The translations under genes and the position numbers were made by a program. The notes under the pieces are model-generated. The model made no database searches. It was not told where the DNA came from and saw only the letters and a program-made list of their open reading frames with translations. Shown piece after piece: positions 1 through 64,000 of a stretch of 64,000 bases of DNA; the stretch's first letter is position 1, and every line of letters begins with the position of its first letter. The stretch is from Psammoneis japonica (taxonomy: Eukaryota): NCBI GenBank assembly GCA_008632985.1, contig QPGO01000202.1, positions 62,001 to 126,000 of the forward strand, given 5' to 3'.

Positions 1-2793
1 TTCAATGCTGTGAATGACACAACGTCAACACCTTGCTCTGGAACATGACATGAAATAAACGACTGTGAGTGAGACAACGGCAGGCAATGCAGCAACACCT
101 CCAAAAACATCAAAACATGACACTGCACCACCAGACGCAAAACTGCAACTCAGTGCGCTAACTTTTTTCATCACAATGCCACATGTTGCACACATCAGTC
201 ACAGGACAGGGACTGTCGGCCGCATTGAACCAATCGTCTTTGAAATGAGCATCGCAGAGACAAACGCCATTTTCACCATTGATGGTTTTTGAGTTCTGAC
301 CTCATTGTTGGAAAAGCACCAGAAGCTGTGCAGCACTTGATTTTGGGCGGATGGGCCGATGTGCGCATTCGCGCAAAGCAGCCGAGATTTTGAAAGGCAC
401 AAAGTCCATTGGGTGCTGAGTCGTGGCACTGAGCAAAAGAGAGGCTCACAACCTGAGAGTGCTCCACTGTCCACAGTCTGCACAGCACAGCTCTCTCACA
501 ATTCGCGTTGATCGTCGGCGACAATCTTCCTTTTTGACAAATCTCAGGTGCTGCAAGACCACTGGTGACACCATGCCAGACAAACTGCCAACCTCCCCAA
601 ATCAGAAGTCTGCTTCCTTGCTGCATCTGCACTCCTGGAGACATGGGCTTCACTCCCATCCATTGTCAACCCCCCCAACGAGCCACCCCCCATCGCGCAC
701 GCTCTCGGTGCACCTCTCCCTCTCAACAACATCATTTCCTTCCTTTTGGAAGACCCCTTTGATTGCTGCACACCCACAAGCCATCAACAAATGTCAAGAC
801 AACACCTGTGTCACAATCACCAATCACCTCAACATCTCTGAACCCTCCAACCATGCGCCAAGCTCCTCTCTGCGCCGAACCCACGCGGCATCATCCCCAT
901 CTTTTTTGCACACACAACGACCCCCCAATCAAGCACAAACTCCTTTTCTTTGCCACCCCTCTTGTCATTGACATCACAGATGCCACCCTTCACCTTTGCC
1001 CTGGCATGATGCCCAAAGATTTGCTCCATGACCCACCCCCCTGTCACCCCCCTCCCCCCCACTCACACATCCACATCCTTTGCCCAAGCAGACAACAAAC
1101 CATCTTGCGACACTCTCTTGGAAATGGCTCTCTCTTTTCTTGAAGCTTTCTGGCAACCTGCACCCACACCAGCATCCACACCGTCACTGATTGCCCCCCC
1201 CCCCCCCTCACCCCTCTCAAACAACCAAAAAATGCTCTCATCCACATGACTCTGACAACTCAACATGCTTGCCCGACACCACCATGGGCCAAGCCGACAT
1301 TGAAACCACTGCAGACCACACCAAGCCCGCAATTCCAACCCAAATCACTGCAGTTGCAGCCATTGAAGACACAATCTGACATGGACTTTGAACACTCTCA
1401 ACGGGACTGTGAGCTCCTCAATGCATTTGATCAATGGGTCCCTGCACCTCTGCACCTGCACACCTTGATGAATGGAATGAACTGGCCTGTGGTGCCGCCA
1501 AACTAAATCAAGACCCCGCTGCACTCCACCCAACCATCCAGAAATGGAGCCCATTGGCACATGCACCCTGCTGGGGGTTGCCAATTGGTCATGACCCCTT
1601 GAGGGCTGCTCTTTTTGCCTTCCAACTGACACCCCTCCGACCCAAGTTCCCAAGCTTCTGCGTGCACATCTGTCCTCTACACACAAACATTGCAGCTTGT
1701 GATCCATGTGCCTGACTCTTTTTTCCAGCAACCACACAATTTACATCCATGTTGTCACTGTCAACATGCCACCAAGATGTGCCTTTGAGACACCCACCTG
1801 CACACCCGCATTTGCAACACCCACCAACAACCTCGCACAACCACCAACATCCACAACTTGTTGCATCATCCTGCCCATGCCAAGAGCTTTCTGAACAGAC
1901 AGCTTCCCTTCAGTGGCTCAACTCACCAGCCCTTTCACCATCACCTTTCCGCACCTCCATTTGGCACAAATTGCCTCCTTCCTCTTGCCTTCAAGTCACC
2001 CTCACTTTTCACCACTTTGTCCAATCATGGGCTGTCGATTCTTCCCAACCCCACGACCCTGCCGATGACCTGCCTTCACCCTGGCAGACATCTCCAGAAC
2101 ATTTTTTCAAGCTCTCCTTTCTTTTTTGAATCCTTCATCTTCTGCCCACACCCCAAGGACTCCAACATCCCAATTTTGACCACATCCTCCTTCTTTCAAC
2201 CCAAAGGATTTGCTCAAGGCTGTCCTCCAAGCCTGCTTTTTCCTGCCTTGTCCTCTCCCATGCATTCAAACCCAATCAATGATGAGCTTCACTGCTGACT
2301 CCCTTCCCACTCCAAATCTGCTGCTTCATCATGCTTTGAGGACACTCACATCTTCCTTCCCTTCTCCAAAATCCCTTGGCTCCTCAAGCATCTCTCTGCT
2401 CAAGGCCCCCAATTCAGAGTCAAGGTCAACACATCCAAAACACAAATCCTTGCATCCATTGCCAGCACTTCCCAGATCAAAACCAGCTTTTGCCCACCAC
2501 CAACACCAAAGCCCTTGCTTTTGCTTCTCAACCCCGAAAACAGCCCAAACATCAAACCTGAAATCACTGCTGGCATTCAATTCCTCGGCCAACCCATTGG
2601 ATCTGTTGCCTTTGCCCCATGTTTTCTTGAGACAGCAAAAGCCACCACCATTGCCACAGACCTCCAATGTCTTGCCACCCACCTCACCAACAAACAAACA
2701 CAAAGCACACTTCTTCTGTCAACAGACATCTGCTGCAACCTTGTGCACCACTGCGACCCTCCAAACCCCTTCCGACGGGCATCTCCCTTCACC

Positions 2794-3176
2794 TGCAGCA
2801 TGCATTGTTAAGTGGAGGAATTCACACATCATGTTCACAATTGCACATCATCACATGTGTCAATCACACCACAATCGTGGATGTGCACAAAGGACAGATC
2901 AATCACACACAGATGTGGTTGGAAGTCCAAAATTGCAAATGCAATCAGACGATGATGTTGACACATGAGGTGTCAATGTTGATCGCATCTGGACAATCTA
3001 TTGTCATGATCCATTTCTCCATGAGGCCTTCAGTCTGCAGAGACAGTGCAAAAGGTTTGGGCCATTGAGAACTCCTTTGGAGAAACCCAAATCTTAGAAC
3101 AAAATCCAACCTCATAATTTTCCACTTTTTGTGATTTATTTTGCTTTTGTTGCACTCGTTCTTCAAGCAGAGTGCA
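2794..3176 (+). mobile_element. Solo LTR of the Gypsy family seen at 43.5-64 kb
   Basis: TGCA...TGCA termini. Homologous to the LTRs at 43517, 52563, 53771 and 60868. Flanked by a 4-bp direct repeat CACC (2790-2793, 3177-3180) consistent with a TSD. Confidence 0.85.
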
Positions 3177-4024
3177 CACCAACAAAATCATTGGTCCTTC
3201 CCTGCACTTCCTCACCTGCCCCACTCAATGCACAGACCCACTCCCTTCTGCTGCCAAGCTCATCGCCAGCCTGTCCATCTCTCCAGGCAGCATTGGCTGT
3301 CACAACATCTCTGCTGTTGCCATTCCAGCCCTCATCACCTCTCTTGCCTGATCCATGAGCTGCACCAAACACGGCATCCCACTTGCTGGTGACAACTCAT
3401 TCCATCTCCCTCAGAGCTGCTCTGCCACTCTTGGCTCATGGTCCAACCCATGATCCAACCTCTCACTCTGCTGCATCTTCTGCCACTGTGCTCCCACCCT
3501 CTTCCAATTTGACTCTCCTTCCTTCTCGTCACTGCAACATGCCATTGAACACCACAACCTGCAAGGCCTGGCACAACGCCTCCATCTTTGTCACCACAAG
3601 AACAACACCCTTCCTTCCTCAAATTCTGGCTGACCCTGGCCTTCCATCCAACCAGCTCTCCCACCCCTGCTCTCCTCGCTTGCAGCTTGCGGGTTTGTGC
3701 CTTCACTCTCTTTCCCAACTGCATGTGCATCAAACTGACTCCCACCAACCCTGTTTGCACTTCTCCCTCTTCACAAGCTGCAACTCCCTGTAATTTCTCC
3801 TGATCCACTCTAACATGACTGTCCATGTGGTCACACCTGCCCAGACCCTTGTGAGGACCATGCCTTCACCTGCCACAAAATGCACAAGAGCCCTTTTGTT
3901 TCAAACTGTGTCCATGATGCCATCTGCATCATCATCGAAACACTGGCCTCCCTCAGTGGTCCATGCTGCTCTTGCCAACAAATTCATCTAAACCCCAGCC
4001 AACCCTCTTGCTGACCACCCCTTG

Positions 4025-4532
4025 AGGATGGATCTGCGTGCAGCGGCATGATTTAAAATGGCTCGCATTTCCCACAGCACTTCACCGTGTCATTTTGACC
4101 TGTCTCGGAACACCCCCAAACACTCGTGCATTTGTCAAACCCTCACAGGGGCTGCCAAACATCTGCAAGAGCTGCACATTTAATGCTTCAAATGCCGCTT
4201 GTCAGCCTGTGCCCTGTTGTCAGGGTCACGGTTGAAAAAGCACCAATTTTCACTAAAATCTGGCTTCTCATGGGAGATGAGCTGCAACTTTCTGGGAAAA
4301 GGCAATGAGTGGCATTTGACTGGCTCTTTACATGATGTGCATCTACAGTCGACGAGGCAAAAGTTGCGCACGGTCACAACCATTGTTCGTGCATTCTGTG
4401 ATGTCTTTGAAGCGGACAAAGTTCGACCTTTCCCGAAATTGCATTTTTGGTGAATGCGCGCATTCAGTGCAAAGAACCTGGGTTGTTTTTATAAAAATTA
4501 CGAAAGCATGCCGCTGCCTGTGGATCCATCCT
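4025..4532. mobile_element. MITE / non-autonomous DNA transposon with ~30-bp TIRs and a probable TA target site
   Basis: Left arm AGGATGGATCTGCGTGCAGCGGCATGATTT; reverse complement of right arm AGGATGGATCCACAGGCAGCGGCATGCTTT. Flanks are TG (4023-24) and CA (4533-34). Removing the element plus 2 bp restores the LINE frame D-H-P-L-K-C-P-T-N-I. Confidence 0.8.
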
Positions 4533-5271
4533 CAAAATGCCCCACCAACATTGGTGCTCAACTTGTCCCCGGTTCCACACTGCCGACCACCGGAAGCTCC
4601 ATCCACCCACCAATTTTTTGGCCATTGATGTTGCCGCATTGCCAGCTCCCCCACATGCACTCATTTTGCCCACCCCTGAAAACCTGTTGAACAAGGCTCA
4701 CCTCAGCAGCACATGGGGCAAGCTCTTTGGTTGAACTGCATCATCTGCCTGCCGCTCCGACATCATTGACGCGCTGCTGTCAATCAAGCAGGAGGACTTT
4801 TCCTCCTCCCTTTCACCTTGGATCATCTTTGGTGTCTCCACCACAACATCCTCCTCCATCCCTCCTCTCCCTTCCAAACCACCTTGGGCCAATCCATCTT
4901 CCCTCTCCAACTCCCAAGAGCTTCCTTCCCCACCTTCAAAAACTCGCTCTTGCCCCCCCCNCCCCCCCCCCCCGACTTCCTTGCCCACTCCAACTGCGCC
5001 TGGAAACAAGCAAGTGTCACAGACTGCTTTGGCACCTCCCATCACACCGCAACCCCCCAACTTTGGGCCTCACTCGGCGTCGCTCTCTCCAACCACCTCT
5101 CCTCCGACACCCAACTGTCAATGCATGCATGACAACTCCTCCTCCCGACCGTCTGTCCGCACCCTTGGCCGCCCATCTTTCTTCTCTCCATCACTCCGCG
5201 CGCTCCGTGCGCCACTCCCACCACACACTCCTACCGTACCGACCCACCGGGTGCAATGCAACCATGAGACC

Positions 5272-7107
5272 ATGACGGACAAATCATCTTTGAAACGACG
5301 CAAACGCCTTCGATCTCAAGCACGGTGTACACCATGGCGTGATGTATGGGAATTAGAGCATGTCGGTCAGACGCTCATGTACGCTACTCATCTGTTGGAC
5401 AACGACGACAGTAGTTGCAATCCAGAAAACATGTCGCAGTTTCAGCATGCACTTTCACGCGTTTCTCTGTGGAAGTCACGTTCGGAGCAGGGGAGAATTC
5501 CGCATTCGATTGAGACTACAGCGGCTCTTGCCGAATTGGCATGGCGAGATTACGTCTCCCGCAATTATGATGGGTATGCAGGGACGAGGAGTACAATGGA
5601 GCTGCGCTTAGCGTATTCTTCGGCACTTATTCGTGGGATCAACGGAATTGCAGACGTTATGCAACAACACCGTGCGACAGCATCGAGTGTAGCGTCCCTA
5701 TGCGAAATGGTAGGGTTGCCTGGGTGGTTGGTGGATATGAGGCATGATGCTGCTCACAATGATTTGCCCACGCTCCCGTCGCTTCGGTTGGCCTGTCGAA
5801 CCTTTCTGGGATTTCTTCACGAGCGGTATTGGCAACCCATGGCTGCAGCACGAAACGATATCAGTGAAAGTGCAATGAAATCGCTGACCCAATATAAAGT
5901 GTTGTCGAAATCGCAGCCAATGGTGTACTCCTCCAACATGGATCATTCTACCACGCAACAATTGCAACACGCAGACACAGAGAGTGACGACGAGAGTAGT
6001 ACGAGCAGCAGTGACGATGAAGAGTGGGACAATCCAAACGCTAAACTATGGGGTCGCAGTGTTGGTACAAATGAGAACCGTTATTCACTCTTGAGTGTGC
6101 CCGACAAAAAGAAGAAGCCCAAGAAGAAACCCAAGCGAAAAGCGAAGAAGGTAGTTGCAAAACTTGACGAGAATTCACCCATATATCACGCTCGTCAATA
6201 TGTAAAGACGATACCCATTGATGTTGGCTTTCGAGTAGCATTCTCATTTTTGATATGGGGCAGTGATTCTACAAAAGACCGTGGGGCACTCATTCCTGGC
6301 TCACAAGCGGCGTATCCGGAAGACATTGCTGGAGTAGAAAAGATTCGACAACGCTACAAACCCCTGATCCACATTTTGTGCGGAACTTGGCCTGGTTTGG
6401 CATCGGCATTACTAGTGCATCTAGTAGATGGGATTCTAAACATTGAACACGGCCTTTTGCAGGAGACCAAGTCGGGCAAGATGGATGGTTCTTTGACGAG
6501 ACGGATTTTTTTTCTCGTGTCGTGGGTTCATTATCTCCTGTCACGAGAGTTCCATATGCAGCGCCACCCAGAAGTTGCGCAATTTCCGGGTGGAGCGGAC
6601 CTCTCCAAAAAGGCTGATTGGACAGCAGCAGAACAGTCTTTTCTACAAAGTACAGCGCCACTGGAGGTCCTCCAACAGGCAAACTTTCCTCTCAACGGCC
6701 TGTGCGATCGATGTTGCAATATGAATGACAACAAGTCTTCTTTCTGTCAGGCAAGCTCTGATCTTTCTGAATTGTTTTGCCGACTTCTCGGTGATGCCAG
6801 AGTACTGGATATGGGGGTGACGCAGTCGTCTCCCGAAAACACAAGTAATGTAGAGCAGCAAGCTTGTAAACGGCCCAAGCGTTCATTGGTTGAGAAGCCA
6901 GAGGGGCCAGACAGCATATCGAAAGGAATGTCTCTGGCAGACATGGAAGCGCTCTTGTCTGACAGTGATAAGGAAGCGGAAAGCCCACCAGAAAGGCCAT
7001 CGTCAAGCATAGAACAAACAACGACGGATGCGACAGAATCGTCGTGGGTTCAATGTGAAACGTGGGAAGCCTGTGCCGTTGGCTCGCTCCCAGGATACCC
7101 AGCATAG
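5272..7107 (+). CDS. LAS1: Las1-like pre-rRNA processing endoribonuclease (HEPN)
   Basis: Long ORF with 'WKSR...PHSIETTA', 'LRLAYSSALIRGINGIAD' and 'GLPGWLVDMRHDAAHNDLP' (HEPN RxxxxH). The ATG at 5272 was chosen because the upstream in-frame stretch is LINE relic. Confidence 0.88.
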   Translation: MTDKSSLKRRKRLRSQARCTPWRDVWELEHVGQTLMYATHLLDNDDSSCNPENMSQFQHALSRVSLWKSRSEQGRIPHSIETTAALAELAWRDYVSRNYDGYAGTRSTMELRLAYSSALIRGINGIADVMQQHRATASSVASLCEMVGLPGWLVDMRHDAAHNDLPTLPSLRLACRTFLGFLHERYWQPMAAARNDISESAMKSLTQYKVLSKSQPMVYSSNMDHSTTQQLQHADTESDDESSTSSSDDEEWDNPNAKLWGRSVGTNENRYSLLSVPDKKKKPKKKPKRKAKKVVAKLDENSPIYHARQYVKTIPIDVGFRVAFSFLIWGSDSTKDRGALIPGSQAAYPEDIAGVEKIRQRYKPLIHILCGTWPGLASALLVHLVDGILNIEHGLLQETKSGKMDGSLTRRIFFLVSWVHYLLSREFHMQRHPEVAQFPGGADLSKKADWTAAEQSFLQSTAPLEVLQQANFPLNGLCDRCCNMNDNKSSFCQASSDLSELFCRLLGDARVLDMGVTQSSPENTSNVEQQACKRPKRSLVEKPEGPDSISKGMSLADMEALLSDSDKEAESPPERPSSSIEQTTTDATESSWVQCETWEACAVGSLPGYPA

Positions 7108-12360: not shown

Positions 12361-12497
12361 CCGGACCATTTTTTCATTTTTATGCCAGTTTCTGCGGTTT
12401 TCTGCTCTCTCTCAACCCCTCGCCCCGCCAACAGACACCACACACCACCACATCAATCAATCAACTCACAACAAGGCCCTGTCCCGTGCAATCGACA

Positions 12498-18563: not shown

Positions 18564-18636
18564 GTGTATGCTACTCTTTCTATTGAATGAAAATTGCCTC
18601 TAGTAACAATAAATATAGCAGTTATTAAACTTTGAT

Positions 18637-39021: not shown

Positions 39022-39199
39022 TATGGGTGTTGCGTTTCGTCGTGTCTCTCATTGTCAGGTGTTTCACTTTTGGGTGTTGTCTGTACAGCAGGTACAGCAC
39101 CGTACGTAGGAGAGCGGCGCGAGCTTCGTGCGTTTTGGTAAGAACACAACATGGAGACTCCACTCGTCTACGTAAATGAACACACTTTTATGTTGCGCA

Positions 39200-42100: not shown

Positions 42101-43516
42101 TGACCGGAGCCTGCTGTGGTTTCCATGTTTGAGTTTTTGTGGTGGATGCACCATGGTCGATCATGCATGGAGCAGATTTCGTGGGTCTTCTGGGAACATC
42201 ATTGGGTTGTTCTTTTGCGTTGATGGCAAGAATTGATCCTCCCATGTCGTTTTCATCTGCTCTGATGCTTGTTGACACGGAAACAGTCAACAGAAGCATC
42301 CCGGCACTCACTTCCTTTCATGATGTTTGTTTCAGCGAGCTTTTTGGTTTGTTGTGGTTGTCATGCACCAGCATGACGTCGATGTCAGGTGCCAAGTTGC
42401 GCAGCGTTGCACAACTTTGGCCAGCTTTTTGACCTTTTTCACAAAAAGCATTTCAAGCCCTCTTGAATTGACCAAAAGCATCTTGAAATCTGGGAGGAAC
42501 AAAGAGCTCAGACACCAATGCTGAGGTCTGCATGCGTGCCCCTGCACATGTGGACCTTGGCACCAAATTTCATGTGTGTGAAATTTGTCGGCGTCTGGGT
42601 GCATTTTCTTTGTTCCGAGCCTTGGGGAGCAACAGAGACTCCCTCTTGAACACAAAATGTGCGAATCACAAATTAATTTGCAGGGGCAAACAGCTCAAAT
42701 TTTCACACCATGAAAGCATGCGCAAGGTCTCTGAGTGCTTCATCTTCACTTCAGACAAGCAAGTGGTGCAGCTTTGACAACTGCAGGTCTGCAGTTGATG
42801 TGAAACAACAAACCAGCTGGACTGTTGTCATCACACAGAGCCATGTGATGTTTTGTTTGTGAGGAAAAGTGGCACAATCATCCAAAAAGGTCATTTTCAT
42901 TGAAATCTTGTGATGCGCTGGCATGAGCTGCAGTCACAAGAAGGCAGTTTCTTTTAAAAACAACGATTTCTTGTCCTTTCTTGTGCTTCACATCTTTTCT
43001 CAATCAAAGCAGAAAGAATCCCTGCACCTTGAATTGCACAAGAGGATGCTGCCCACATTCCAAAGACGGTCTTTGAGGGCAACAAGGGTCATTTCTAGAC
43101 TCTCCAAGCGGCAATTGTGCAGGGATTTGAAATTTGTTGCAAATTTTGCAATGTCACAAATTTTGCATTTTGGCAGCTGGCCAGGGCCCTGTTCACACAA
43201 AATTTGCAAAATTGAATGAATTTTTGCAATCTGTCTGTCCATCTGGTTGCACCATTTGGTTGTTTCTTCATCGGGGGTGTCACTCATCATCCATGCAAAT
43301 GAAGCAGTTGTTCATGCTCCAAGACTGAGTGTGCCTCCTGTCCTCTGACACATGAACATCAAACAATGCATCAGATGTCAGGAAGCCATTGGAGAAGGGT
43401 TGTTGCTGAGACTCCCTTCTCCTTGGCTCTCCAACACAATTGATGAAATTGACAAGGACAACAAGCCAGACCTTGTGCTGCAGCTTCAGTCATTGTGACA
43501 GCTTGTCCCCTGGTGG
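39200..43516. other. TpA-depleted degenerate repeat-derived DNA, unclassified
   Basis: Near absence of TpA and only short Cys/His-rich spurious ORFs; no motif recognised. Confidence 0.55.
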
Positions 43517-43883
43517 TGCACCATGCTCGAAGAACGAGCATGAATGAAAGTAGAGTCAAGCATGAAAAGTGAAAATTGTGAGATAAAATTTTGCTCTGTG
43601 ATTTTTGGTTTCTCCGAACGAGTTCTCAATGGCCCAAAGCTTCTGCACTGCTTCTGCAGACCAAAGGCCTTTTGGAGAACATGTTCGTGACAACAGATTG
43701 TCCTGATGCGATTGCCATTGACACGCAAGATGTCAACATCGTCAATCGATCGCATTTGCAATTTTCGACATCCGATCAACTCTGTGTGATCGTTCTGTCC
43801 TTTGCACGCATCCACGACTGTGGTGCGATTGACGTGTAAACAACACATGATTGTGGACATGTGCATGACAGTCGCACACTGCA
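43517..43883 (-). repeat. 3' LTR of the degenerate Gypsy element
   Basis: TGCA termini; on the minus strand it is preceded by a PPT GGGGAGGTGAG (43884-43894) and the integrase 3' end. Confidence 0.88.
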
Positions 43884-52562: not shown

Positions 52563-52929
52563 TGCAGCATGCGACTGTTGTGTGCACATTCATAATTGTG
52601 TGTTGTGTGTGTGTCAATCGCACCACAGTCGTGGATGCGCACAAAGGACAGAACGATCACACAGAGTTGATCGGATGTCGAAAATTACAAATACGATCGA
52701 TTGACGATGTTGACATCTTGCGTGTCAATGGCAATCGTATCCGGACAATCTGTTGTCACGAATATATTCTCCGAAAGGCCTTTTGTCTGTGGAAGCAGTG
52801 CAGAAGCTTTGGGCCATTGAGAACTTGTTCGGAGAAACCAAAAATCACAGAGTAAAATTTAATCTCATAATTTCCACTTTTCGCACACTGTTCTACTTTC
52901 GTTTGCACTCGTTCTTCGAGCATGGTGCA
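52563..52929 (+). repeat. LTR of the same family, opposite orientation to the adjacent internal domain
   Basis: Full-length homology to the other LTRs; flanks CAGT and GCTT do not form a TSD. Confidence 0.85.
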
Positions 52930-53270
52930 GCTTGTCACTGCAACTCCCATTCCAGCAACATCTCTCAGATGAACAGTGACTGTGACATGCCACAGCATTT
53001 TGGTGACAACCCCTCATTTGCTTGCAATTTGGTGGAACAAGAGAATGTCCAGGGGACAGTGGAGGCTGTCATGGTGGTCATGGAGGAAAGGCATCATGGC
53101 AAGGCAACTGCTGCTTGCAAATGGTGCAAGGACATTTCTCAGCACTTGGCTCATCCTGTGTTTCAGAACATCCCTCACTGTGGAGGAAAGCATGGCATTT
53201 TTGGCATGCTCCCCTGGGAGCTGTTGCATGCCTTGCACTTGGCTTTTTGCAAGTGTCTGCTTCAACAATG
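52930..53270 (+). mobile_element. Plavaka-like transposase fragment
   Basis: ACHCNSH...DCDMPQHFGDNP...SQHLAHPVFQNIPHCGGKHGIFGMLPWELLHALHLAFCKC resembles the Plavaka C..C/DNP...GI....P.ELLH...LG..KY pattern once His/Cys are reverted to Tyr. Confidence 0.6.
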
Positions 53271-53666
53271 CAGGAAACTTGAACAGACAACAGGGAGAAG
53301 GGGGGGTCATTGATGCTTGAGAGGCATGGAGAGAGACCAGTCGGCAGTTTGATGAGTCATCTGTCTAAAATGCCTTGCAGAACATGCAGAGTTTGCACTG
53401 AAACCTGTGTGGAAACCTTGCATGTGAGAACAACAAATGCCAAGAAGAGTGCTGAGCAAATGAGCCAACAGGGCTTGACGCCAATTGTTTTCCACTGCAT
53501 GAGATTGCCAATGATTGTAGAACAAAGGCATGTTGACAAAAGAGCACATCTGAACAGGCAGGTGAGAACCATCACCACACCATCAGAGAAAGGCAACATC
53601 AGCACCAGAGCTTGTGCAGAAAAACATGCAGAGGGTGCGGCCGTGAAGCTGAGGCAGAATTGTGCA
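53270..53666 (-). repeat. Dispersed repeat X, copy 2
   Basis: Reverse-complement homology to 26700-27090. Confidence 0.8.
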
Positions 53667-53770
53667 ATCATCCAAAAACAGCAGAGCACTGCAATGAAAC
53701 TGCATTTTTTGAAGACAGCCACGTGCACTTCATTCAAATCAACCAAAAGTGGAGTTAGAAAAACCAGTTG

Positions 53771-54138
53771 TGCAGCATGCAACTGTTGTGTGCATGTTTG
53801 TGATCACACATTGTTTGTGTGTCAATCGCACCACAGTCGCGGATGTGCACGAAGGACAGAATGATCACACAGAGTTCATCGGAAGTCAAAAATTGCAAAT
53901 GCAATTGACAGACAATGTCGACATCTCATGTGTCAATGGCAATCACATCCCAACAATCTGTTGTCATGAACAACTTTTTCGAAAGGCCTTTTAGTCTGTG
54001 GGACCAGCACAAGAGCTTTGGACCATTGAGAACTCATTCGGAGAAACCAAAAATCACAGAGCAAAACTCAATCTCACAATTTCCACTTTTTGCACTTTGC
54101 CCCACTTTTGTTTGTGCTTGTTCTTTGAGCATGGTGCA
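53771..54138 (+). repeat. Solo LTR, heavily mutated
   Basis: TGCAGCATGC...GCATGGTGCA termini and full-length homology; no clean TSD (GTTG / ACTG). Confidence 0.85.
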
Positions 54139-54281
54139 ACTGTTGTGGATGACACAAAGTTGGACAAGACACTTGAAGTTTTGCAAAAAAATTGTGGTTG
54201 TCCATTGCCAGTGATGCCAACACACAATCTGAGGATGAAATTGGCCATTTGGACTTGGATGAGTGCTCCTGACAGGAGGCC

Positions 54282-55180
54282 TTGGATGAACTGTTTGAAT
54301 TGACAGAGAAAAGAGTGGTCAAAATGGATGGGAAGGAGTGGTCTGCAAAGAGTGGGAAGGCCCCCAAAACTTCAAGGAAATGCCAAGTGCATTTTGGCAA
54401 CTGGGGCAATCCAAGGTTGAGTGTTCCCATTCCACACACTCCAAGAAATGCAGACATGGCTTGGCATGGCTCTGTCAGGCTCATCCAAAAGCATTTGGAA
54501 AATGAGGACAAGGAGATGGAAGAGCAAAAACAAGGTGCATCATTGATCGCTTGGGCAAGGCAGTGCCAAACACATTCTGCAAGGCTTGGTCCATTCACAA
54601 AGAGTGGCTTCATTGAGTGGCAAAAGAGTTGGCCAATGGCAACAAAATGTTGTGCTCAATGGAGGATGAGCACCTGCACACAACCCTTGCCATCAACAGT
54701 TGCTGTGGTGGTGGGGTTGCTGGCATTCATGTGGACACACACAATGCATCCATGCATTGGAGGGGATTGCCAGACTTTCATTGCAACCCAACCGGCAATG
54801 CAGACATTGCCCTCCTTGTGTGTGCTCCAGTCAAGAAAGGTGTGTTGAAGCCAATCTTGGTGTTGCAACATGCCAAAACCATGACTTTTTTCAATGCAGG
54901 ATCCTTTTGTCATGGAGCAATTCATGTGGGGATGCACCTCACTCATTTGAACAGTTTGTTCTTCTGTGCAAGTGAGTCAAACAAATTGCTCAGGCCCAAG
55001 CCAAAGTGGGTTGGCAATCACAGCAAGAATGGACAACATCTGTTCCTTGCTTGGCACACAAAGCAAAACTTGCCGATGGTGGATGCAACGGATGAGGTGC
55101 TGAAAACACAACATGGAACCTTGTTTGTTCATGATGAAGATTGGCAATGGGTGCAATCAAATTTGAAAGAACAGAAATGA
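54282..55180 (+). pseudogene. Degenerate 2OG-Fe(II) dioxygenase, TET/JBP-like
   Basis: HTTLAIN...AGIHVD (HxD at 54728-54736), TFFNAGSFCHG (distal His 54911-13), GQHLFLAWHTK (CAT at 55037-39 restores to Arg CGT). One frameshift near 54550 and a TGA (probably from CGA) at 54614-16. Confidence 0.55.
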
Positions 55181-55399
55181 GTGCAATGACCTGAGCAGCG
55201 ATGGTTCCGACAAGGATTGGACATGTCTGCACAAAAGGTCAGACAGAATGGAACCAGTTCATGACTGCAGTGAGGCATCCAAAATTTGGCAACTTCAGGA
55301 AAGGTGACAACTGCAATGACAATGCACACAAGGAGCTGCTTTTGCAGACAACAGACAGGGTTGACACAGTTGGAACATTCCAAAAAGGACACAACTGAG

Positions 55400-57230
55400 A
55401 CACATCAAACTCCAGCAGATCCGTTGGCCTCATCAAACATGTCATCATTGTCTGCCATAGAATGCTCCAGCTCCTTGGTTGCATGTCACTTGTTTCCATT
55501 CAGTTGCACCTCATTGTCCAGCTCGGAGGGTGGGAAAATGACTTGCTCCACTGGGAAAAGGTTGCTGTGGTCTGTTCCCTTGGTGCGTGACAGAAAATCA
55601 AGAGTTGGTCCAACCAGGACATCCATTGCAACAGCAGCCAAATCTGCATTTGTGGGGCAAAAGCTGGCTGATTTGGTTTCTCCACCTCCAAATTGTTGCT
55701 TCAGGAAAGAAAGGCCCATGTTCACTGAAAGTGCCATCCAATGCACGGTTGGAGGTCATGACAATGTTGCGCCACTTCATGAAATGTGCAATGTCTGGGG
55801 CAGCATGCTTCTGCTTGGATTTAGCCAAAGGGACATTGGCAATGAAGTGATTGTGCAAACGCGCACATTTTTGAACAACACCATCATTGGCTGGATCACT
55901 GCTTTTGGGTGCAGCTGGCATGTCATCCATGTTGCACAGGCTGTCAATCAGATCATCCTCATGATGCCAGAACACATTGGCAAGGAGAAACTTTGCAGTG
56001 ATCAACTGGGTGAGTGCCTCCTGAGCAGCACTTTCCATGCAGTGGGTCACAGCTGGCTCATTGTTCTTGGCGTAAAAGTTGGTGACTTTGTCGTGGCTCT
56101 GACTGCAGTCTTTCATTGGCATTCAAGTGCAACAAAGGCTGACAGCAGCAGCAAGAGGCAAGAAAAAATCTGCCCACAGAGATGGGGCCAACCATCCAAA
56201 GTGGCAGGTGGTGCAGAGACAGGCTGCATTGTGACGACACGCAACAGCACTGTTTTCCTCAACTGTTGACACAGTGCCAGCAGGAGGGGCAGTGAACAAG
56301 TCAACAGGAGTGTGCTGGCCTGCAAAAAAGACAAATGAACCACAAACCCATCATGAGTCACACAGAGAAGATTCAAAGAAGAGGGGACAAGGATTTGCAT
56401 CACCTGCATCACCATGATGGGAGCCACAGACTCCACAAAGGACTGTGGGAAACAAGGCACTGCCGGCCTTTTTGGGTGGCAGAGTGTGGTTGATTTGTGT
56501 TCTGAGACAGGAAGCAAAGGTGTTTTGTTCTTGATTCATGAAGTTGAGGGCCAAGGGGCCAACCTTCTCCCAAAACTTTTGACAAACTTCAGGTTTGTTG
56601 AATTCATTGTCAGACCTGTCCTTGTCATTTTTTGGGTTTTTTGGGAAGACATGTTCCCAAACCATCAAGGCAAAGGGACATTTGGAGTTTGCACCAGCAT
56701 CCAGGAGTGGATGGCAATTCACAGTGTTGCCAATCTCTTGTTTGGATGGAAAACCCAGAGAGAACAGAGCAGCATGACCCACCTTTGAGTTGCCCACTTT
56801 CTTCACAAAGTTGGTCTCCAAATTTGTCATTTTGCTGGCATGAAAGGTCTGTTTCTGAGCTTTCTAGAGAGAGGCAACGGCCTTGTTGGCGGTGACAATT
56901 TTTGCACCACAGGCGTTGTGCTTTTGCTGCAGTTGCTTGCACATCTTTTTGTTGTGGTTTTTGCATGGGCTGCACATCCTCCAGCAAAACAAAAGCCACA
57001 CTCTGCAATCATTGCCAGACATTTGGTTTCACTTTGTCATGCTGCTTGAGAGAAATTCAACATCTTCTTTTTGAATTTGAGGGGAACAGTTCTCAGACAC
57101 ATCATCAGAGGAGTCGGCTTCTTCATTGATGGAGGCTGCAGCAGCAGTGGCAGCTGCTGGGTCATTGACTGGTGGAGCAGCTGTGGATGACATGTTCCAG
57201 CCCTGGGTGGAAGCTTGTGGTGCTGACATG
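55400..57230 (-). pseudogene. Degenerate ORF of unknown function, convergent with the TET/JBP-like relic
   Basis: Consecutive protein-like minus-strand segments (57229-57029, 56830-56351, 56122-55598) broken by stops and frameshifts. Confidence 0.35.
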
Positions 57231-58789
57231 TGACATGATCATTTTTGTCGTCTGTTGCATGTTTCACACTCACATTTCTGCATGTGATCTTTCAAAAAAT
57301 TGTTCCACACTCCCTGTTTTGCAAAGCCCCAGATGTTTCATTTGGCACATTTGTGGGAACAACAATGCACCAGGCACATCCTTCAATGTCTGAAGAATGC
57401 ACCTGGCTGAGTGAGAACTGACTTGCTTCAATCATGAACAAGTTTGTGCGTTCTCAAAATTGCCTCTTTTTCTGTTGGCAATCATTGACATTTTCATTGC
57501 CTGACAATTTTACTGCGGAGCTTGCACGCAGAATTGCATGGGCCCAATGTCACATGGATTCCCACCTGCATCTGGAGCATGTCGGACAAAGAGCCTTGAC
57601 ATCACAGAGGGCCAGTCCTGGAGAGCCTTGCCTGGGCTGCCCAGAAGGACGAACTTGGCAACCTCCACCATGACCTCCACCATGGCTGCCAGCACCACTG
57701 GCACGACTGGCATTGTTGGGGCCAGCAACTTGTTGGTTTGGCTTCTTCCATTTTTTGGGCGGCATGGTTGATGACAGCACAAAATGGAAAAAGGGGTTGA
57801 TTTAAGTCCTGGAAATGGGAGTGCAAAGGCAGAAGTGTGTGAAATTTCCAATCTTGACAAGGGCACTTTAATGTCATAAAATCAAACTTGTTGAACAAAT
57901 GTGGGATGTCAATGACTGAATGATTCATCAAGGTTTTCAAATCATTCAAACCATTGCATTGTGGCAAAAAGATTGAATTTTAAAATGAAATTGTTGCTGA
58001 GAAAGAGATGCTGGTGGGAATCAACTGATGGCGATGCTCACAGTTTGGCCAAAAAACGAGTTGTCCCTCCCTCACAAGACACAGAAAATGCAAACTCAAG
58101 TTGCAAGCAATGCATGAAAATGTGAGCGGCAGTGACAAGTGGCGGCATTGTGGATGGGACAGAATGAAATGCAGGACACAAGGTGAGAAAGAGGAAACAA
58201 GTGGCTGGTGCATGGAGATCAGGTGCACAACGCAAACAACGGACACTTGTGCACATCTTTGCACACAGAAATCTGCACAGCAACCTGACATGATGCAAAG
58301 GAAGATTGGCAATGGGGAAGGGCACAAAGGCGAGCCAAAGCAATGCATGAGACAAGATTGCAGGAAACACAAGACACACGCAAAAACTGATCATTGGCAC
58401 AAAGGTTTGTCCAGTTGCAGGCAATGCTTTGCCCAGCCAAACAGAAGGAACCTGAGATTGATCATTCATCAGCGGCTGCAACACAGTGGTGTTCACTTCC
58501 CTTCATCTGGTTTGTGCCAATTGACGTTGTGTGAGTTTGTCTTTTTTTTTACTCAAGAACAAGCATGTGAGGTGAGAAATTGGGCTTCATTGGAAAACCT
58601 CTGCTGCTGTGATTTTTTGCACATTCATCACCAACATTCATCCAGTCCATCAAGTTGTGCATGTTTGCACACAAACGTCAGAGCCACACTCACCACTCTC
58701 AAGGCTGCAGCATTCAGATGGGGTGAGATGTGGCTCAACCCCAGAGCCATGATTGCAAACATTTTCAGCTTTGCTGCTGTGCAACGGTG

Positions 58790-59103
58790 TGACCATGATT
58801 CTCACCTGCCCACTCCAACTGCTTCTCTCTTGACACACACTCATTTCATCAAAAGTGAGTGGCATTGAGCCCTTTGGCTTGTTTGCTCATCATCCTTCTT
58901 GGCATTTTTCTTCCTTGTGTGCAAAATTTCCACACAAGTTTCAGCACAATCTCCACACATTCTGAAAGTCAACTTGCCAAACTGTTGACTGCTCTCCATC
59001 CATGCCTCTCAGGTGTCAGTGACCCAAATTCTGTCCATTGTCAATTTAAATTCCATGCTTCACATGGTGAACAACCTTCTGTTGTTGTTGCTCTTCAAAG
59101 TTT
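58790..59103 (+). repeat. Dispersed repeat X, copy 3 (more diverged)
   Basis: ttgagccctttggcttgtttgctc...ctctccatccatgcctctcaggtgtcagtgaccc...tggtgaacaaccttctgttgttgttg matches 26880-27135. Confidence 0.7.
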
Positions 59104-60867
59104 TGTCATCCATTTGCTTCTCCCATTGGCTTTTCCGTGCAAGATCTGGCACTGTTTCTGTGTGACACCACTGACAATCTGTGTGTCACTTCTCTGGACT
59201 GCTTTTGTCCTTGCCAATTGGCCCCCAATGCTGCTTCTTTTCTCTGCTGTTCAATCAAATCCTTCACTCTTTGGGGTGAATGTGCTGCTTCTGTTGTGGC
59301 CTTTCCAGCAAGAGTGCAAGTCATCCTGTGGCATCATTTGATTGTCATCCTGTTTGCTGCTCCCATCAGCTTTTCTGCACAAGACCTGGCACTGTTTCAA
59401 CATGCAACAAATGTTTTTGCCAATGACCTGCTTGTCTCACCTTCACGGCTTCTTTTGCAAACTCTTTTGGCAACCTGTCCAAATGCAATTGTCCTCTGCA
59501 GCTGTGGTGTGCATTCTGTGGCTGTCATCAGCAAGCACACAATGAATTCCTCATGTGAGTCATTCCTTTTCAGTTGTTTTGGTGGGGTGTCACCTTCTGG
59601 TGGTGCCCATTCTGGCCAATCCCATGCAAGCTCCTGCTGCACTGAAACAGTGCACTGGGAGTGTGGGTCAGCTGGCACCGGCGTGGCTGGCAATGGAGTG
59701 ACTGCACTTGCAACTCAGATTTCTTTTTTTTTTTGTTCACTGGGGGTGTGGGTCGCTTGTTGTCAGAGTTGCAGGATGGAAGCACAGCAGCAGTTTAAGT
59801 GCAGATTTTGGGTTTTGCTTTGCTTTGACTGATGCAAGCAGCACAAAGCAGTGTGACTGCCTTGAAGTGCAGATCAGGAAGAGCAGTGTGCAACCCCACG
59901 AATGACATGTTGTGATGTGGCACTTGCTTCACTGTCAATGGAAAGACAGCAAGCAAACCCCTCAACAAGAAGCTTGTGTGCCTCAGGTTGGCAGCAGCAG
60001 CAAAGCACATGCCCCATTCATTCCATCCAATGAGCGGCTTTGACAAAGGCAAGATGCCCAAGTTGTCACTCAGCTGTGCTGAGGCAAAGCAAGGAAGACA
60101 AATCAGATGTTGGTAAAAAGGAACCTCTTCTCCAGTCTCCTGGGATCAGCTGGTCAGGAATTCACTCAAAGTGATGCAGAGATGTTTGTCCAAGCACTGG
60201 TCAAAACAAAGAGAAGAGAGGCAGAGTTGGGTGCAATGCAAACTGACATCTCCAAGAGAGCTGCTTTTGCTGCCAGTTTGTGTCTTGAAACAACAAAAAA
60301 AATGACAAAAGACAGAAAAAGAAAGTTCTGTGGTTGCATCAACTCTGTCAATGCCAGCAGCAACAAAGGGAAAAGCAAAAAAAATCTTTGTTCACCCATG
60401 GTGTGACCCATGTTGTGCCAGTTGCATCGTGACAAATGGCTTGTGCACAATCACATCTGGCACACATCAACCACCTTTGTGTGCATGTTGGTCAGGAGGG
60501 GTGCAGAGGTGCACTTGCAGGATTCAATGGGGTCCCTGTGTGCAAGTTCATGGTGCAGTGTCTGCCCTTGGGCAGATCAAAACATGGTTGCAGGCACACA
60601 CTGTCAAAGCCATGTGCATCCATGGTGTTTGTTGGGCTGTTCTCAACTTGAGAAATGTTGTTCACTTTGAATGCTGTGTCCTGTTTGCCAGTCTTCTTGT
60701 TCAGCAGTTGGAGTCAATCCACCACTCAGCTGTCATGAGCAATGCAGCACTTGTTCTTTGCATCCTTTAAACTCAGGATGTTTGCAGCTGTGTTCTGTGA
60801 TCCAAACTTCATGTCTCCTCATCCAGTCATGGTGGCATGGTGCTTGTCCAAGGCACACCAGTGGACA

Positions 60868-61246
60868 TGCACTATGCTCGAAGAACGAGTGTAAACGAAA
60901 GTATGACGAAGTTCAAAAGGTGAAAATTATGAGAATCATTTCTGCGCAATCATTTTGGGTTTCTCCGAACGGGTTCTCAATAGCCTGAACCTTTTGCACT
61001 GCTCCTACAGACAAAAGGCCTTTCGGAGAATATGATCGTGACGACAGATTGTCCGGATACGATTGACATTGACACGTAAGATGTCAACATCATCGTACGA
61101 TCGCATTTGCGATTCTCGACATCCAATCACTTCTGTGTGACTGATCTGTACTTCGTACGAACCCACGATTGACGTACGATTGAAACATACTTTTATTTAA
61201 TATATAGATATACATATATAATACGTACATGACAACGCACATTGCA
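60868..61246 (-). repeat. 3' LTR of the youngest Gypsy element
   Basis: TGCA termini; PPT AGGGAGGCGAA (61247-61257) lies just after the integrase stop; retains a (TA)n tract at ~61187-61230. Confidence 0.92.
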
Positions 61247-64000
61247 TTCGCCTCCCTAATTGCACATTAGAGTCAGTCGTTAAACGGCATTATTCGACGA
61301 ACATTGACAGTGTCAATAACGTTACCGCGTTTGATCTGTACTGTGCCATTAGTATGTACCGTTGTTATTACATACGGTCCAACATAGGGCTGTTCTAATT
61401 TTTGCGAGTCTTTCTCGAGTAGTATCTTTTCTCCTACTCTGTACGTGTAAGGAGTACGTCGAGCATTCTCTCGAGCGTTATTTTTATTTATGATTTCTTG
61501 TTTTCGCTGCTGGATTAATTTCCAGTCCGCGACATGTTGGACGTTAAATATCATGTCTCTATTGAAGACTAGTTGTCCTGGTGTAGATTGCGTAGTAGCA
61601 TGATACGTAGAACGTACTGCAAACGCTACCGCTGATAGTGTTCCAGCGAAAGGATCCTCAGTATCTAGAGGTGTATGTTGCAAATCAAATGTATGGAGCA
61701 TGTTCCCCAGCACTTGATGTACGCGTTCAACAATTGCGTTTGCTTGTGGATTTCGTGTGGTTGTAGGCTTGACTTTAATGCCATGACCATCTTGCACCAT
61801 TTCTCTAAATTGGTGTCCGATGAACTCACTTCCACGGTCACATGTAATTGACGATGGCCAAGGATGTCCACTTGGCCATGTTCGTTCTAACAGTCCAGCC
61901 ACAGTTGTGGACTCCTTGTTTGGGATTTCCACAACTTCAAACCATCCGGTTGCTGGATCGATCGCAGTTGAACATTTCAGGACTGGGGGTTTTTCCTTTC
62001 CCTTGCGACGCACTTTGTATGGCCCAACAAGGTCCACACACAGTCGTTCCCATGGTGCGGATTCTGCGCACTTGGGAGGTAAATGTCCACATTTCTTGTG
62101 TTTCTTTTTGAATTTTTGGCACGTCTCACATCTCGACACGTGTTTTCGTATGTCTTCACGTGAGGTGGACCACCGTGGGTGTTGTGAGATTGTTTCTTCT
62201 GTTCGATTTATGCCAGGGTGAAGAAGGTGCGCATGATGCCAATCCATCACTGCCTTTTGCAATGTCCTCGGGACGACAATTTCATCCTTGTGACATGTGA
62301 GCAACCGGTCTCGCTCGCCTCCACGAAAAGTCTTCGTATGAAACGTCTTGTTTGACAATTGGGAGAGAATGTCTTTGTCCCATTTTTGTTCACAATCAAG
62401 AACTTTGCAATTTAACGGAAAGACATTGTCGCAGGATTTTGGTGGGGACCTTTTCAGCTGGCTCTTCTGTGCTGAGGGTTTCCATGGGTTCTATTTTCTT
62501 CATGGCAAGTCGGCCAATCGTGTCTGCGACAATGTTTGCCTTGCCCTCAAGGCATGTCATTTTGGGACTGCACTCTTCTGTCATTAGACGCCAATGCATG
62601 ACTCTGTCCGTTGTGAAATTTTTGTGTGTGAGATTTTTGTGATCCGCACGCATGTTTGTCTGTTGGCCAAACAGTGTGTTGCGGAACTCTTTTAACGTCT
62701 CCACTGTGGACAACAGCTCTTTTTCCGTTGCAGCACAACGCGTCTGCGCTCCATTCAGCTTGCGGCTGTAGAAGGCAATTGGTCGGTTTTTCTGAGCAAT
62801 GACCGCCCCCAATTTGAGAATTGCTGGCATCGGCACACATCTCAAAGGGGATGTTAAAATTCGGGTGTGACAATGGCATGTCTTTGGAGATGATGCGCTT
62901 CATGTTTTCGAAGGCTTTTTGTTCTGTTTCGGTCCATTGCCACTTTGCTTGGGTAGAAGTGAGTTTGGCTAAAGGAGCTAAAACATGAGATCGTCGAGGC
63001 CACATGTCTCGACAGTGGTTGATCATGCCGATAAAGCGTCGCAATTCCTTGCGAGTTTTAGGAGTTGCGATCGCGTGAATCGCTTCTACTTTTTTTGGAA
63101 TCGGACTGATGCCCTTGCGGGTGATGTGAAAGCCCAGATAGTCTGCTTCGGGTTTAGCGAAAAAGGACTTCTCGGCGTTGACCTTCAATCCGGCTTGTTC
63201 CAGGCGTAAGAACACCGTTTCAAGCTTCTTGAGGTGGTCTTGAAAATCACTTTTTGTAAGACACAATGTGTCGTCAACATAAGTTCTGACGAACTCCAGA
63301 CCTGCCATGAGCTCACTCATGTGCTCTTGGAAAATATCTGGAGCTCCACAGATTCCCATCGGGAGTCTACAGTGCTCACATTTGCCCCAAGGCATGACGA
63401 TCGTGCACAAGCAACGTGCATGCGGCGTCAATTCGATGTGATAGCATCCCATGTTTAAATCTAGGGACGTTGCATGCATGAAGCCTTCAAGCTTCTGTGG
63501 CATGTCCTGAACATTGGGTGGAGGAAACGGAGTGCGAATTAACCTCTCACTTAGCTCACGAAAGTCGGATGAGAACCGAACTCTGCCATTTTTCTTGGGT
63601 TGAACAAAGGTTGGAGCCGCCCATTCAGAACAATTTATTTTTCTTGAGACTTTCAACTTGCACAGTCTTTCAACCTCCTTACGAGCAGTTGCCTCCAAGG
63701 CTTGTGGTGCGGGAAATGGTTTGGCATGACACGGACTCACGCCCGATTTCAACTTTAAATCCACCGGTTTCCCGGTCCATTTGCCTGGAGAACCATCGAA
63801 AAGGTTTTCAAATCTTTTTAAGAGGAAGTTCAGCTGCTTCTGCTCTTCAGGAGTTAGATGAGCAGCTGCTGCGGTCACATTGTTGAGGTTTGCAGCGTGA
63901 TGGTCTGAGTCAAGGATCCGATTGACCCTGTCATTAAGACCAATCACTGCATGAGATTCCTCAATGTGATCGGCAATCAACTTGAAAACATCGGCATCGA
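60868..64000 (-). mobile_element. Ty3/Gypsy LTR retrotransposon (RT-RNaseH-integrase), runs off the window; missense-hypermutated, frameshifts at ~62820 and ~62400
   Basis: SEWAAPTF, DFREL, LDLNMG.YH, RLPMG, YVDD, DAS, EKELL, DH, HHCC zinc finger, D-D-E core, GPY module; Gypsy domain order. Confidence 0.95.

Follow-up and report, generated by a model that had tools for sequence, protein, structure and literature searches.

What process could strip nearly all TpA dinucleotides from tens of kilobases of diatom DNA and spare the genes that lie between? The question is raised by a 64,000-nt stretch of Psammoneis japonica DNA (assembly GCA_008632985.1, contig QPGO01000202.1, positions 62,001-126,000 of the forward strand), hereafter the window, in which three long blocks, one of them holding decayed Ty3/Gypsy retrotransposons, are almost free of TpA. 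An earlier note on this DNA had proposed a mutator aimed at repeats that converts TpA into TpG or CpA. We report here that TA is the ancestral state and that change runs from TA to TG or CA; a real TpA-directed process, acting in place and confined to the blocks, probably exists. All dinucleotide counts were taken from the assembled sequence of this single window.

Three sharply bounded blocks are nearly devoid of TpA

Averaged over the whole window, observed/expected (O/E) ratios of 0.31 for TpA, 0.69 for CpG, 1.47 for CpA and 1.42 for TpG mask two compositional states. Calculated per kilobase, O/E values in the three blocks range from 0.00 to 0.20 for TpA, from 0.02 to 0.90 for CpG and from 1.5 to 2.0 for TG/CA, whereas in the gene regions TpA ranges from 0.33 to 1.10 and CpG stays near 1. 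Block 1 (1-5232) extends past the window start and ends approximately at the start of the Las1 gene, block 2 (25727-29513) lies between a glycosyl-hydrolase gene and a gene with an RNA recognition motif (RRM), and block 3 (39206-60768) spans 21.6 kb. Pooled (1-4960, 25727-29513 and 39206-60768; 30,310 bp), the blocks contain only 137 TpA, an O/E of 0.06, with corresponding values of 0.37 for CpG, 1.69 for TpG, 1.81 for CpA and 0.83 for ApT. Individually, we found 21 TpA (O/E 0.07; CpG 0.34) in positions 1-4960 of block 1, 11 TpA (O/E 0.04; CpG 0.13, TG 1.78, CA 1.92) in block 2, and TpA O/E ratios of 0.03, 0.10 and 0.03 in the three sub-blocks of block 3, where CpG stands at 0.39, 0.65 and 0.14, respectively. 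By comparison, TpA and CpG ratios are 0.49 and 0.98 in the long open reading frames (ORFs) of the gene regions (20,291 bp). In the 9,805 bp of non-ORF DNA between these ORFs they are 0.66 and 0.94, so that, inside the window at least, intergenic DNA is not depleted to the same degree; equal depletion would have counted, by the terms of the earlier note, against its proposal.

The contrast is equally clear in the spacing of TA and at the borders. TA-free gaps that reach 150 bp or more number 71, and the longest of them, 1466 bp in block 3 (53992-55458), has a probability of about 3e-24 at genic TA density; in gene DNA no such gap exceeds 323 bp. At the five block borders, the inner 500 bp hold 0-3 TpA and the outer 500 bp hold 14-47: 0 against 19 at the end of block 1, 3 against 47 and 0 against 14 on the two sides of block 2, and 1 against 16 and 0 against 27 on those of block 3. 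The near-absence of TpA from the blocks and the sparing of neighboring genes, both claimed in the earlier note, are thus borne out by the O/E contrast and by borders that are sharp within 500 bp; its TpA counts were exact (0 in 54001-55456, 3 in 55441-56400 and 16 in 5341-5700).

The stop codons reflect the same composition. In the six frames of block 3, TGA occurs 1101 times, TAA 116 times and TAG 39 times, the latter two being scarce because TpA is depleted, whereas in gene DNA the three codons occur in numbers of similar order. The blocks carry 146 stop-to-stop ORFs of at least 90 amino acids (up to 331) without any match, which arise because TAA and TAG are nearly absent and the change from TA to TG or CA creates no new stops.

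A strand asymmetry is found in block 1 only. In positions 1-4000 the plus strand is C-rich (324-377 C against 141-184 G per kb; GC skew of −0.35 to −0.41) and CA exceeds TG (120-138 against 73-88 per kb), which may reflect either the native composition of an element or a one-strand bias of conversion. A single N occupies position 4961, some 270 bp short of where block 1 ends and at the margin of the Las1 gene region.

TA is the ancestral dinucleotide

The direction of change could be read from a Ty3/Gypsy long terminal repeat (LTR) retrotransposon present in copies of different ages. The less mutated copy, which we call Y, occupies positions 60868-64000 on the minus strand and extends past the window end. 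Its 3′ LTR and untranslated region (about 60868-61275) is followed by integrase, RNase H and reverse transcriptase (RT) ORFs, and its pol domains (Pfam RVT_1, RT_RNaseH/RT_RNaseH_2, Integrase_H2C2 and rve, in that order, 61276-63998) identify the family as Ty3/Gypsy, with the 5′ LTR lying beyond the window. The decayed and rearranged copies, termed O or old copies below, lie at 43517-54141, the main ones in minus sense. They are 67-77% identical to 60868-64000 and 90-95% identical to one another by blastn, and are also found by tblastn with the integrase, RNase H and RT ORFs of Y. The TpA O/E drops to 0.10 in the O-copy region; in Y it is 0.78 for the LTR part and 0.42 for pol. The saturated block 3 ends about 100 bp from Y (60768-60868), whose LTR part keeps the ratio just given; either Y was recently inserted beside older sequence or saturated neighbors do not pass the process on.

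Being less depleted than the old copies, Y was used as a proxy for the ancestor. Only 3 of its 88 unique TA sites are kept in every aligned old copy, compared with 35 of 118 CG sites and 1058 of 1990 sites of all other dinucleotides. Seven of the 88 TA sites are still TA in at least one copy, and 59 read TG or CA in all aligned copies. Among the 32 TA sites aligned to at least two copies, there are seven where TG stands in one copy and CA in a second, a pattern that requires a TA ancestor mutated twice independently. Pairwise comparisons of Y with old copies, in which Y sites are reused, gave 146 TA observations, of which 9 remain TA, 53 became CA and 46 became TG. CA or TG was thus the outcome in 99 of the 137 changed observations, in blocks that also hold many C>T changes at CpG and 25-30% general divergence, which makes the overall spectrum a mixed one. 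Per site, A changed to G at a rate of 0.358 where T precedes it, and of 0.105, 0.164 and 0.082 where the preceding base is A, C and G, respectively. For three young copies, a majority-rule polarization returned 46 apparent changes from TG or CA to TA and was rejected, since independent hits in one dinucleotide mislead the column majority; the young copies were instead tabulated by dinucleotide.

An outgroup gives the same polarity without using Y as the ancestor. We aligned the RT of Y with 120 homologues from outside the window and retained the columns with tyrosine in at least 70% of sequences. Of 16 such columns, Y keeps tyrosine in three and has CAY (His) in six and TGY (Cys) in four, while it retains the residue at 16 of 17 conserved proline columns, 13 of 14 for phenylalanine and 13 of 14 for glycine. 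Overall, its RT contains 0.62% Tyr, 3.5% Cys and 5.0% His, against medians of 3.9, 1.2 and 2.5% among the 120 homologues, in which Tyr content is never below 2.0%. The conversion has therefore already reached part of Y itself. Of the 17 Y tyrosines that could be aligned to the old copies, all are gone there, five having become His and five Cys. Related metagenome loci have TpA O/E ratios of 0.53-0.90, none of the five being TA-poor, and they thus supply no independent case of the signature from the environment; in viral contigs we found no relatives of the Y RT. Three of the metagenome contigs, from sediment (L001, L002 and L004), have CpG O/E of 0.25-0.28, TG/CA of 1.2-1.5 and a normal TpA of 0.53-0.59, and represent CpG decay without TpA loss among relatives of the Y family.

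One alternative, that the repeat families are TA-poor by origin or evolution, for which only the depletion itself speaks, has been refuted for the Gypsy family, which the normal tyrosine and TpA contents of its outside relatives show not to be natively TA-poor, and its probability as a general account is virtually nil: TA in Y corresponds to TG or CA in old copies, and conserved tyrosine codons now encode His or Cys. Two specific claims of the earlier note were confirmed by these comparisons, namely that paralogues differ as TA, TG or CA at the same site and that conserved TAY codons have become TGY or CAY (10 of 16). Of the outcomes that it had named as telling against its proposal, neither a lack of A>G enrichment at TpA (0.358 after T, against 0.082-0.164) nor an ancestor already free of TpA was seen for the Gypsy family.

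Change probably occurs in place and on either strand

The two outcomes of TA are balanced (53 CA and 46 TG), and runs tests on the order of TG and CA detected no strand-coordinated clusters in any of ten series (p 0.22-0.79). This absence of strand runs points to single-site events on duplex DNA or to many small independent events. Segmental and tandem duplicates in the blocks have continued to diverge in the same manner. In six copy comparisons, the mismatch columns derived from CG or TA (CG/TG, CG/CA, TA/TG, TA/CA and TG/CA) numbered 65 of 78, 121 of 140, 75 of 82, 32 of 45, 44 of 51 and 44 of 52, that is 71-91%, and transitions ranged from 71 of 78 to 51 of 52 (42 of 45 in one comparison). 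Two adjacent copies of a 1.74-kb unit (47546-49285 and 49284-51020; 95% identical) form a tandem pair with 78 mismatch columns in an alignment of 1734; only 13 of these mismatches fall outside the CG and TA classes. At TA the two copies agree in 8 sites and disagree in 9, and at CG they agree in 49 and disagree in 35. The depletion is moreover uniform over element junctions and unassignable DNA, and ceases within a few hundred base pairs of genes.

These observations bear on whether the changes were made in the RNA or cDNA of retroelements before integration, by an ADAR- or ADAT-like enzyme acting on RNA or by a deaminase acting on minus-strand cDNA. All identifiable elements in the blocks are retroelements, and a preference for a 5′ U is typical of A-to-I editors according to a recent preprint (bioRxiv 10.64898/2026.01.13.699255). 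Such editing would nevertheless leave marks on one strand, whereas TA>CA and TA>TG are nearly equal and randomly interspersed; duplicates made at the DNA level still diverge with the same spectrum, and the depletion runs evenly through element junctions and unassignable DNA up to sharp borders. We consider this explanation very improbable. Equal strands, ongoing divergence of DNA-level duplicates and uniform depletion instead argue for change in place on double-stranded DNA. The DNA-level, context-specific A:T>G:C change that the earlier note had inferred at TpA is supported by the outgroup polarity, the strand balance and the divergence of tandem copies.

TpA loss is separable from CpG loss

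CpG is also depleted in the blocks, to an extent that the earlier note underplayed (O/E 0.37), although its statement that CpG decay alone is insufficient holds. Among Y CG observations, 95 of 239 read TG or CA in the old copies, and CG classes dominate the differences among young duplicates. A signature compatible with the decay of methylated CpG is thus present, and would account for part of the TG/CA excess and for none of the TpA loss. The two losses differ in their distribution: CpG O/E varies from 0.13 to 0.65 among sub-blocks, while TpA stays at 0.03-0.10 throughout, and the Gypsy-derived sub-block combines near-zero TpA with a CpG ratio of 0.65. Uneven CpG loss against uniform TpA loss indicates that the two are separable and that TpA saturates first.

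The coexistence of both losses raises an explanation without any dedicated system, in which silent methylated chromatin would be repaired differently, through weak mismatch repair or error-prone patches made by a polymerase of the Pol eta type at deaminated 5-methylcytosine, so that T:G errors at the weakly stacked TpA step are fixed together with CpG transitions. Mismatch-repair-deficient spectra pair C>T at CpG with T>C, and Pol eta favors WA sites. TpA and CpG loss do share the blocks and together dominate the differences between young copies, and events are independent for each site and strand, as passive errors would be. However, the specificity for TpA is extreme, A>G after A (0.105) is not above that after G or C, contrary to the WA rule, transversions are rare, and the uniform TpA loss separates from the variable CpG loss. 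We regard this explanation as unlikely.

Flanking bases modulate TpA loss

The persistence of TA in the blocks depends on its neighbors. Relative to gene DNA, the density of TTAA in the blocks is 0.73 (42 block sites and 57 genic sites), whereas it falls to 0.11 for CTAG, 0.09 for TTAT/ATAA, 0.07 for GTAC, 0.02 for ATAT and 0.01 for GTAT/ATAC. TTAA is therefore the most persistent TpA context and V-TA-B contexts are those changed; slower loss of TTAA and its faster re-creation through C>T in TCAA would each produce this persistence. A model with one factor per strand fits the ten context classes within two- to three-fold, the derived factors for the base preceding TA being 0.85 for T, 0.34 for C, 0.26 for G and 0.155 for A. 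In the polarized comparison, the A of TA was changed in 15 of 73 opportunities in TAA, 23 of 70 in TAT, 38 of 94 in TAC and 22 of 53 in TAG. At asymmetric sites, with sites reused, the predicted strand was the one changed in 19 cases against 6 (p 0.015), and among young copies all eight asymmetric polymorphisms, which are neither independent nor polarized, fit the flank rule.

Such flank dependence resembles an enzyme recognition motif, a feature also expected if thymine at TpA were symmetrically modified to 5-hydroxymethyluracil or 5-formyluracil by an oxygenase of the TET/JBP type and then miscoded as C, in the manner of 5-methylcytosine at CpG. TpA is self-complementary, and the equal and independent involvement of both strands is what the decay of a symmetric mark would look like. 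Dinoflagellate hydroxymethyluracil, for its part, prefers TpA. Oxidized thymines and their excision are expected to yield transversions as well, whereas the changes observed here are almost purely transitions, a purity that favors deamination over oxidized thymine or abasic intermediates. Our literature search, in the sources that it covered, returned no such modification in diatoms. We judge thymine modification to be quite unlikely.

The assembled bases are probably genuine

Could the missing TA be present in the DNA and lost in base calling? Under this hypothesis, modified TpA and CpG would be read as TG or CA by a long-read caller while the true sequence is TA. Near-identical tandem copies do differ mainly as TG/CA, TA/TG, TA/CA and CG against one of its derivatives, which a random choice of consensus could mimic, and the sequencing run that we designate X1 dates from 2019, its platform not being stated. 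Contigs built from X1 alone share 0.68 of the 31-mers sampled from 52001-60000, a region in which presumed converted sites occur about every 12 bp, so that X1 reads appear to carry the TA-free sequence; next to no matching 31-mers were found in two other runs from the same sample as X1, and no RNA run containing them was listed. A share of this size is not expected of noisy reads, and accurate platforms should not miscall modified bases. In addition, TG/CA flips number 9 in the 95% tandem pair against roughly 130 excess TG/CA sites, far from an even lottery, and the depletion tracks the age of copies, from the LTR of Y (0.78) through its pol part (0.42) to the old copies (0.10). An artefact of assembly or base calling is in our view improbable, a judgment to which the de novo appearance of the same signature in Illumina data from another alga, described below, also contributes.

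Content of the blocks

Beyond the Gypsy family, no sequence in the blocks could be assigned. Self-comparison revealed, besides the old copies, three small fragments that resemble LTRs (2856-3181, 52563-52932 and 53771-54141) and a repeat of 400 bp at 26701-27091 and 53267-53665, the two copies of which are 77% identical. Of the 153 ORFs in or beside the blocks that reach 90 amino acids, 149 were scanned against Pfam, the exceptions being that of Las1 and three that run antisense to Y; outside Y, none of the 146 block ORFs matched a mobile-element family, and two sub-threshold matches, to TAS2R (E 0.0022) and JmjC_2 (E 0.0031), were dismissed as chance. Six-frame read-through found no Pfam family in 1-5232, 25701-29900 and 39201-44000 (E≤0.01) or in 53001-60900 (E≤0.1); 44001-53000 was left out because it was already assigned by blastn and tblastn. 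The stretch 1546-2965, which had appeared RT-like by eye around 2200-2500, matched no Pfam family even at E≤10, and an exhaustive search with the ORF at 2180-2965 gave a single match made of 20 short stretches, probably due to low complexity. A homologue search with the ORF at 55274-56266, in the most TA-free stretch, found none. The earlier note had listed LTR, long interspersed (LINE), Penelope-like, miniature inverted-repeat (MITE) and Plavaka-like elements among those affected. The LTR class stands, as Ty3/Gypsy, and the LINE, Penelope-like, MITE and Plavaka/CACTA assignments found no support in Pfam (terminal repeats were not searched). Heavy mutation may conceal LINE, Penelope or transposase domains in the blocks.

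Genes of the spared regions

The two regions that served as spared controls are gene-rich. The first (5233-25726), in which per-kilobase O/E ratios are 0.33-1.10 for TpA and 0.68-1.20 for CpG, encodes, on the basis of Pfam, Las1, DnaJ, a ZNF598-like RING/zinc-finger protein, Ezh2 and a glycosyl hydrolase, along with genes of no recognized identity. The second (29514-39205; TpA 0.36-0.68 and CpG about 0.9-1.25 over 30001-39000) contains an RRM/La-like gene and three long ORFs without a Pfam family. The latter, of 559, 849 and 952 amino acids, lie at 31744-39021, in the interval that separates block 2 from block 3, and their TpA is normal.

The Ezh2 homologue (12486-14914, plus strand) consists of two overlapping ORFs, one with the MCSS domain (12486-13943) and one with the CXC and SET domains (13757-14914), a split that implies an intron or a frameshift. 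Unnamed environmental proteins match its SET-domain ORF at 70% identity; the best named match is from the diatom Skeletonema (58%), followed by Triparma (50%) and Fistulifera (45% and 39%). The minus-strand ORF 18637-20424 (595 amino acids) contains diverged internal direct repeats at 19159-19720 (65-71% identity) and encodes a repetitive protein without a Pfam family.

Comparison with known systems

The earlier note knew of no description of such a system, a statement now outdated. Two integrated viral regions received 231 of the 302 nuclear point mutations recorded in mutation-accumulation lines of the alga Bigelowiella natans; of these 231 de novo changes, observed in Illumina data, 230 were A>G or T>C, every one of them at a TpA (Mettrop et al., bioRxiv 10.64898/2026.01.13.699255). 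According to the same preprint, the rate is about 6e-7 per site per generation, reverse transcriptase and DDE domains are overrepresented in TpA-poor and CpA- and TpG-rich clusters and coding sequences, and the authors propose a homologue of ADAT2 as the enzyme. Such a rate, approximately 1000-fold over background and seen in only 11 of 15 lines, suggests a switched-on activity and speaks further against the repair-bias explanation. The Psammoneis blocks resemble the hypermutated giant-virus and virophage DNA of B. natans in that TpA is targeted, TpG and CpA are the products, and the process is limited to silent, foreign or mobile DNA, the rest being normal (here, within the window). Differences are also apparent. 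B. natans, a rhizarian alga, shows the process de novo, with a spectrum almost purely A:T>G:C and a modest depletion (Rho TpA of 0.45 in the viral region), whereas in the diatom the process is deduced from copies, strong CpG loss accompanies that of TpA, the blocks additionally show C>T at CpG and 25-30% divergence, and TpA is reduced to 0.03-0.10 over 30 of 64 kb. The flank dependence and the absence of strand runs described here do not figure in the text of that preprint, nor do diatoms. In the literature covered by our search, which left out most subscription journals, we found no description of a TpA-erasing hypermutation in diatoms or other stramenopiles. The interpretation of the earlier note, partly supported by our results, thus appears right in substance though no longer unprecedented. 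The Psammoneis case would carry the B. natans kind of process, in a saturated state, onto transposons and into a second supergroup.

Other known processes match the blocks in part. Repeat-induced point mutation (RIP) of ascomycete fungi is a premeiotic, duplication-dependent process that relies on a homologue of cytosine methyltransferases of the RID type and makes C>T changes, mostly CpA>TpA, thereby enriching TpA. Like the process considered here, it ruins repeats by dinucleotide-specific transitions, spares genes and leaves long blocks of odd composition (for RIP, see PMC7296669 and PMC7882544). The direction is opposite, as the expression "reverse RIP" of the earlier note correctly conveyed: TpA is removed (O/E 0.06, with ApT at 0.83), TA becomes CA or TG, and TG and CA are enriched. 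Decay of methylated CpG, including the CpG hypermutation of basidiomycete elements, likewise converts a symmetric dinucleotide into TG or CA independently on each strand of silenced repeats (PMC3318451). Such decay cannot remove TpA, the loss of which is here fuller and more uniform than that of CpG. ADAR prefers a 3′ G. A-to-I editing by ADAR and ADAT enzymes also turns A into G, with U or T favored before the A and repeat-derived nucleic acid as the usual target; such editing is discussed in the preprint on B. natans. Unlike this editing, which acts on RNA, on one strand and often in clusters, the changes in the blocks affect both DNA strands equally, form no runs and diverge in place, and the apparent preference for the base after A (T, C and G over A) does not match that of ADAR. 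In the second phase of somatic hypermutation, which involves Pol eta and the WA motif, mutation at A:T is tied to nearby cytosine deamination and TA is a hot spot. The blocks share with it A:T mutation alongside cytosine deamination and a hot TA, but differ in that the AA context is not hot (0.105 against 0.358) and transversions are rare. Two more general causes were rejected: GC-biased gene conversion, which is not TpA-specific and would raise the GC content of the blocks, which at 0.47 is not raised, and selection on codons or RNA stability, which would not act on dead elements.

A model for the loss of TpA

Taken together, the explanation that we find best, and hold with slightly better than even confidence, is that the blocks are silenced mobile-element DNA subject to an in-place TpA>TpG/CpA process beyond CpG decay. 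In this model, the blocks would be old, silenced mobile-element DNA undergoing ordinary CpG>TpG/CpA decay, and a second process, presumably of the same kind as the TpA-only hypermutation of silent foreign DNA in B. natans, would convert TpA into TpG or CpA in place, on either strand, site by site. Its targeting would depend on chromatin state or foreignness and not on sequence alone. That a targeted enzymatic system is responsible seems to us marginally favored. The natural tRNA target of TadA/ADAT enzymes is an A preceded by U (U33-A34), a context that the requirement for T before A matches. A DNA-acting deaminase of this kind might convert the adenine of TpA into hypoxanthine, a base that is replicated as if it were G; adenine deamination is a chemistry that we propose tentatively, at somewhat less than even confidence. 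A role in defence, and either of the two chemistries that the earlier note had suggested, adenine deamination or thymine oxidation, are hypothetical.

Several points weigh against this model. Comparisons of Y with old copies reuse Y sites and related old copies, and Y is itself mutated, which inflates the apparent C>T and A>G (0.164) at CpA. In the same comparison, C>T at CpG (0.227) is barely above that in other contexts (0.178-0.203). TG/CA double differences between young copies fit a CG or a TA ancestor, and with Y as outgroup they correspond to TA in 3 cases, CG in 2 and TG or CA in 21. As for TTAA, 13 of 14 Y observations are lost in old copies, and young copies vary at 10 such sites and agree at 9. 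Simple spreading does not account for the effect, since Y retains TA at a distance of 100 bp from a saturated block. Of the 30 kb that are depleted, about 20 kb are without a Pfam match or within-window repeat, and their origin from mobile elements is presumed. At the scale of a single 64-kb window, repeat-induced and domain-directed processes look alike, and X1 may be the very sample behind the assembly. Finally, we know of no natural deaminase that acts on adenine in double-stranded DNA.

Implications for diatoms and other lineages

If real, the process would mean that mobile DNA is erased specifically at TpA in two independent lineages, first a rhizarian and now a stramenopile, in the latter to a far more extreme degree than in the published case. 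The phenomenon would then not be restricted to one alga and would act on transposons besides viral insertions, and diatoms would offer a genetically tractable group in which to search for the enzyme. New descriptive handles, open to testing, are the influence of flanking bases, the independence of the two strands and the separability of TpA loss from CpG decay. On the practical side, gene finders are likely to call false genes in TA-free blocks, and homology-based repeat annotation will miss such blocks.

A broader reading, possible but doubtful in our estimation, is that diatoms and chlorarachniophytes share an old, chromatin-directed DNA-editing defence, in which TpA in silenced foreign DNA, whichever the strand, is marked or deaminated by an enzyme that, together with cytosine methylation, drives both self-complementary pyrimidine-purine steps, TpA and CpG, to TG and CA, here to saturation over tens of kilobases. 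Were this so, the persistence of TTAA relative to V-TA-B would be the footprint of the enzyme, and adenine-directed DNA editing would be a widespread eukaryotic counterpart of RIP and APOBEC, detectable in any assembly through dinucleotide statistics.

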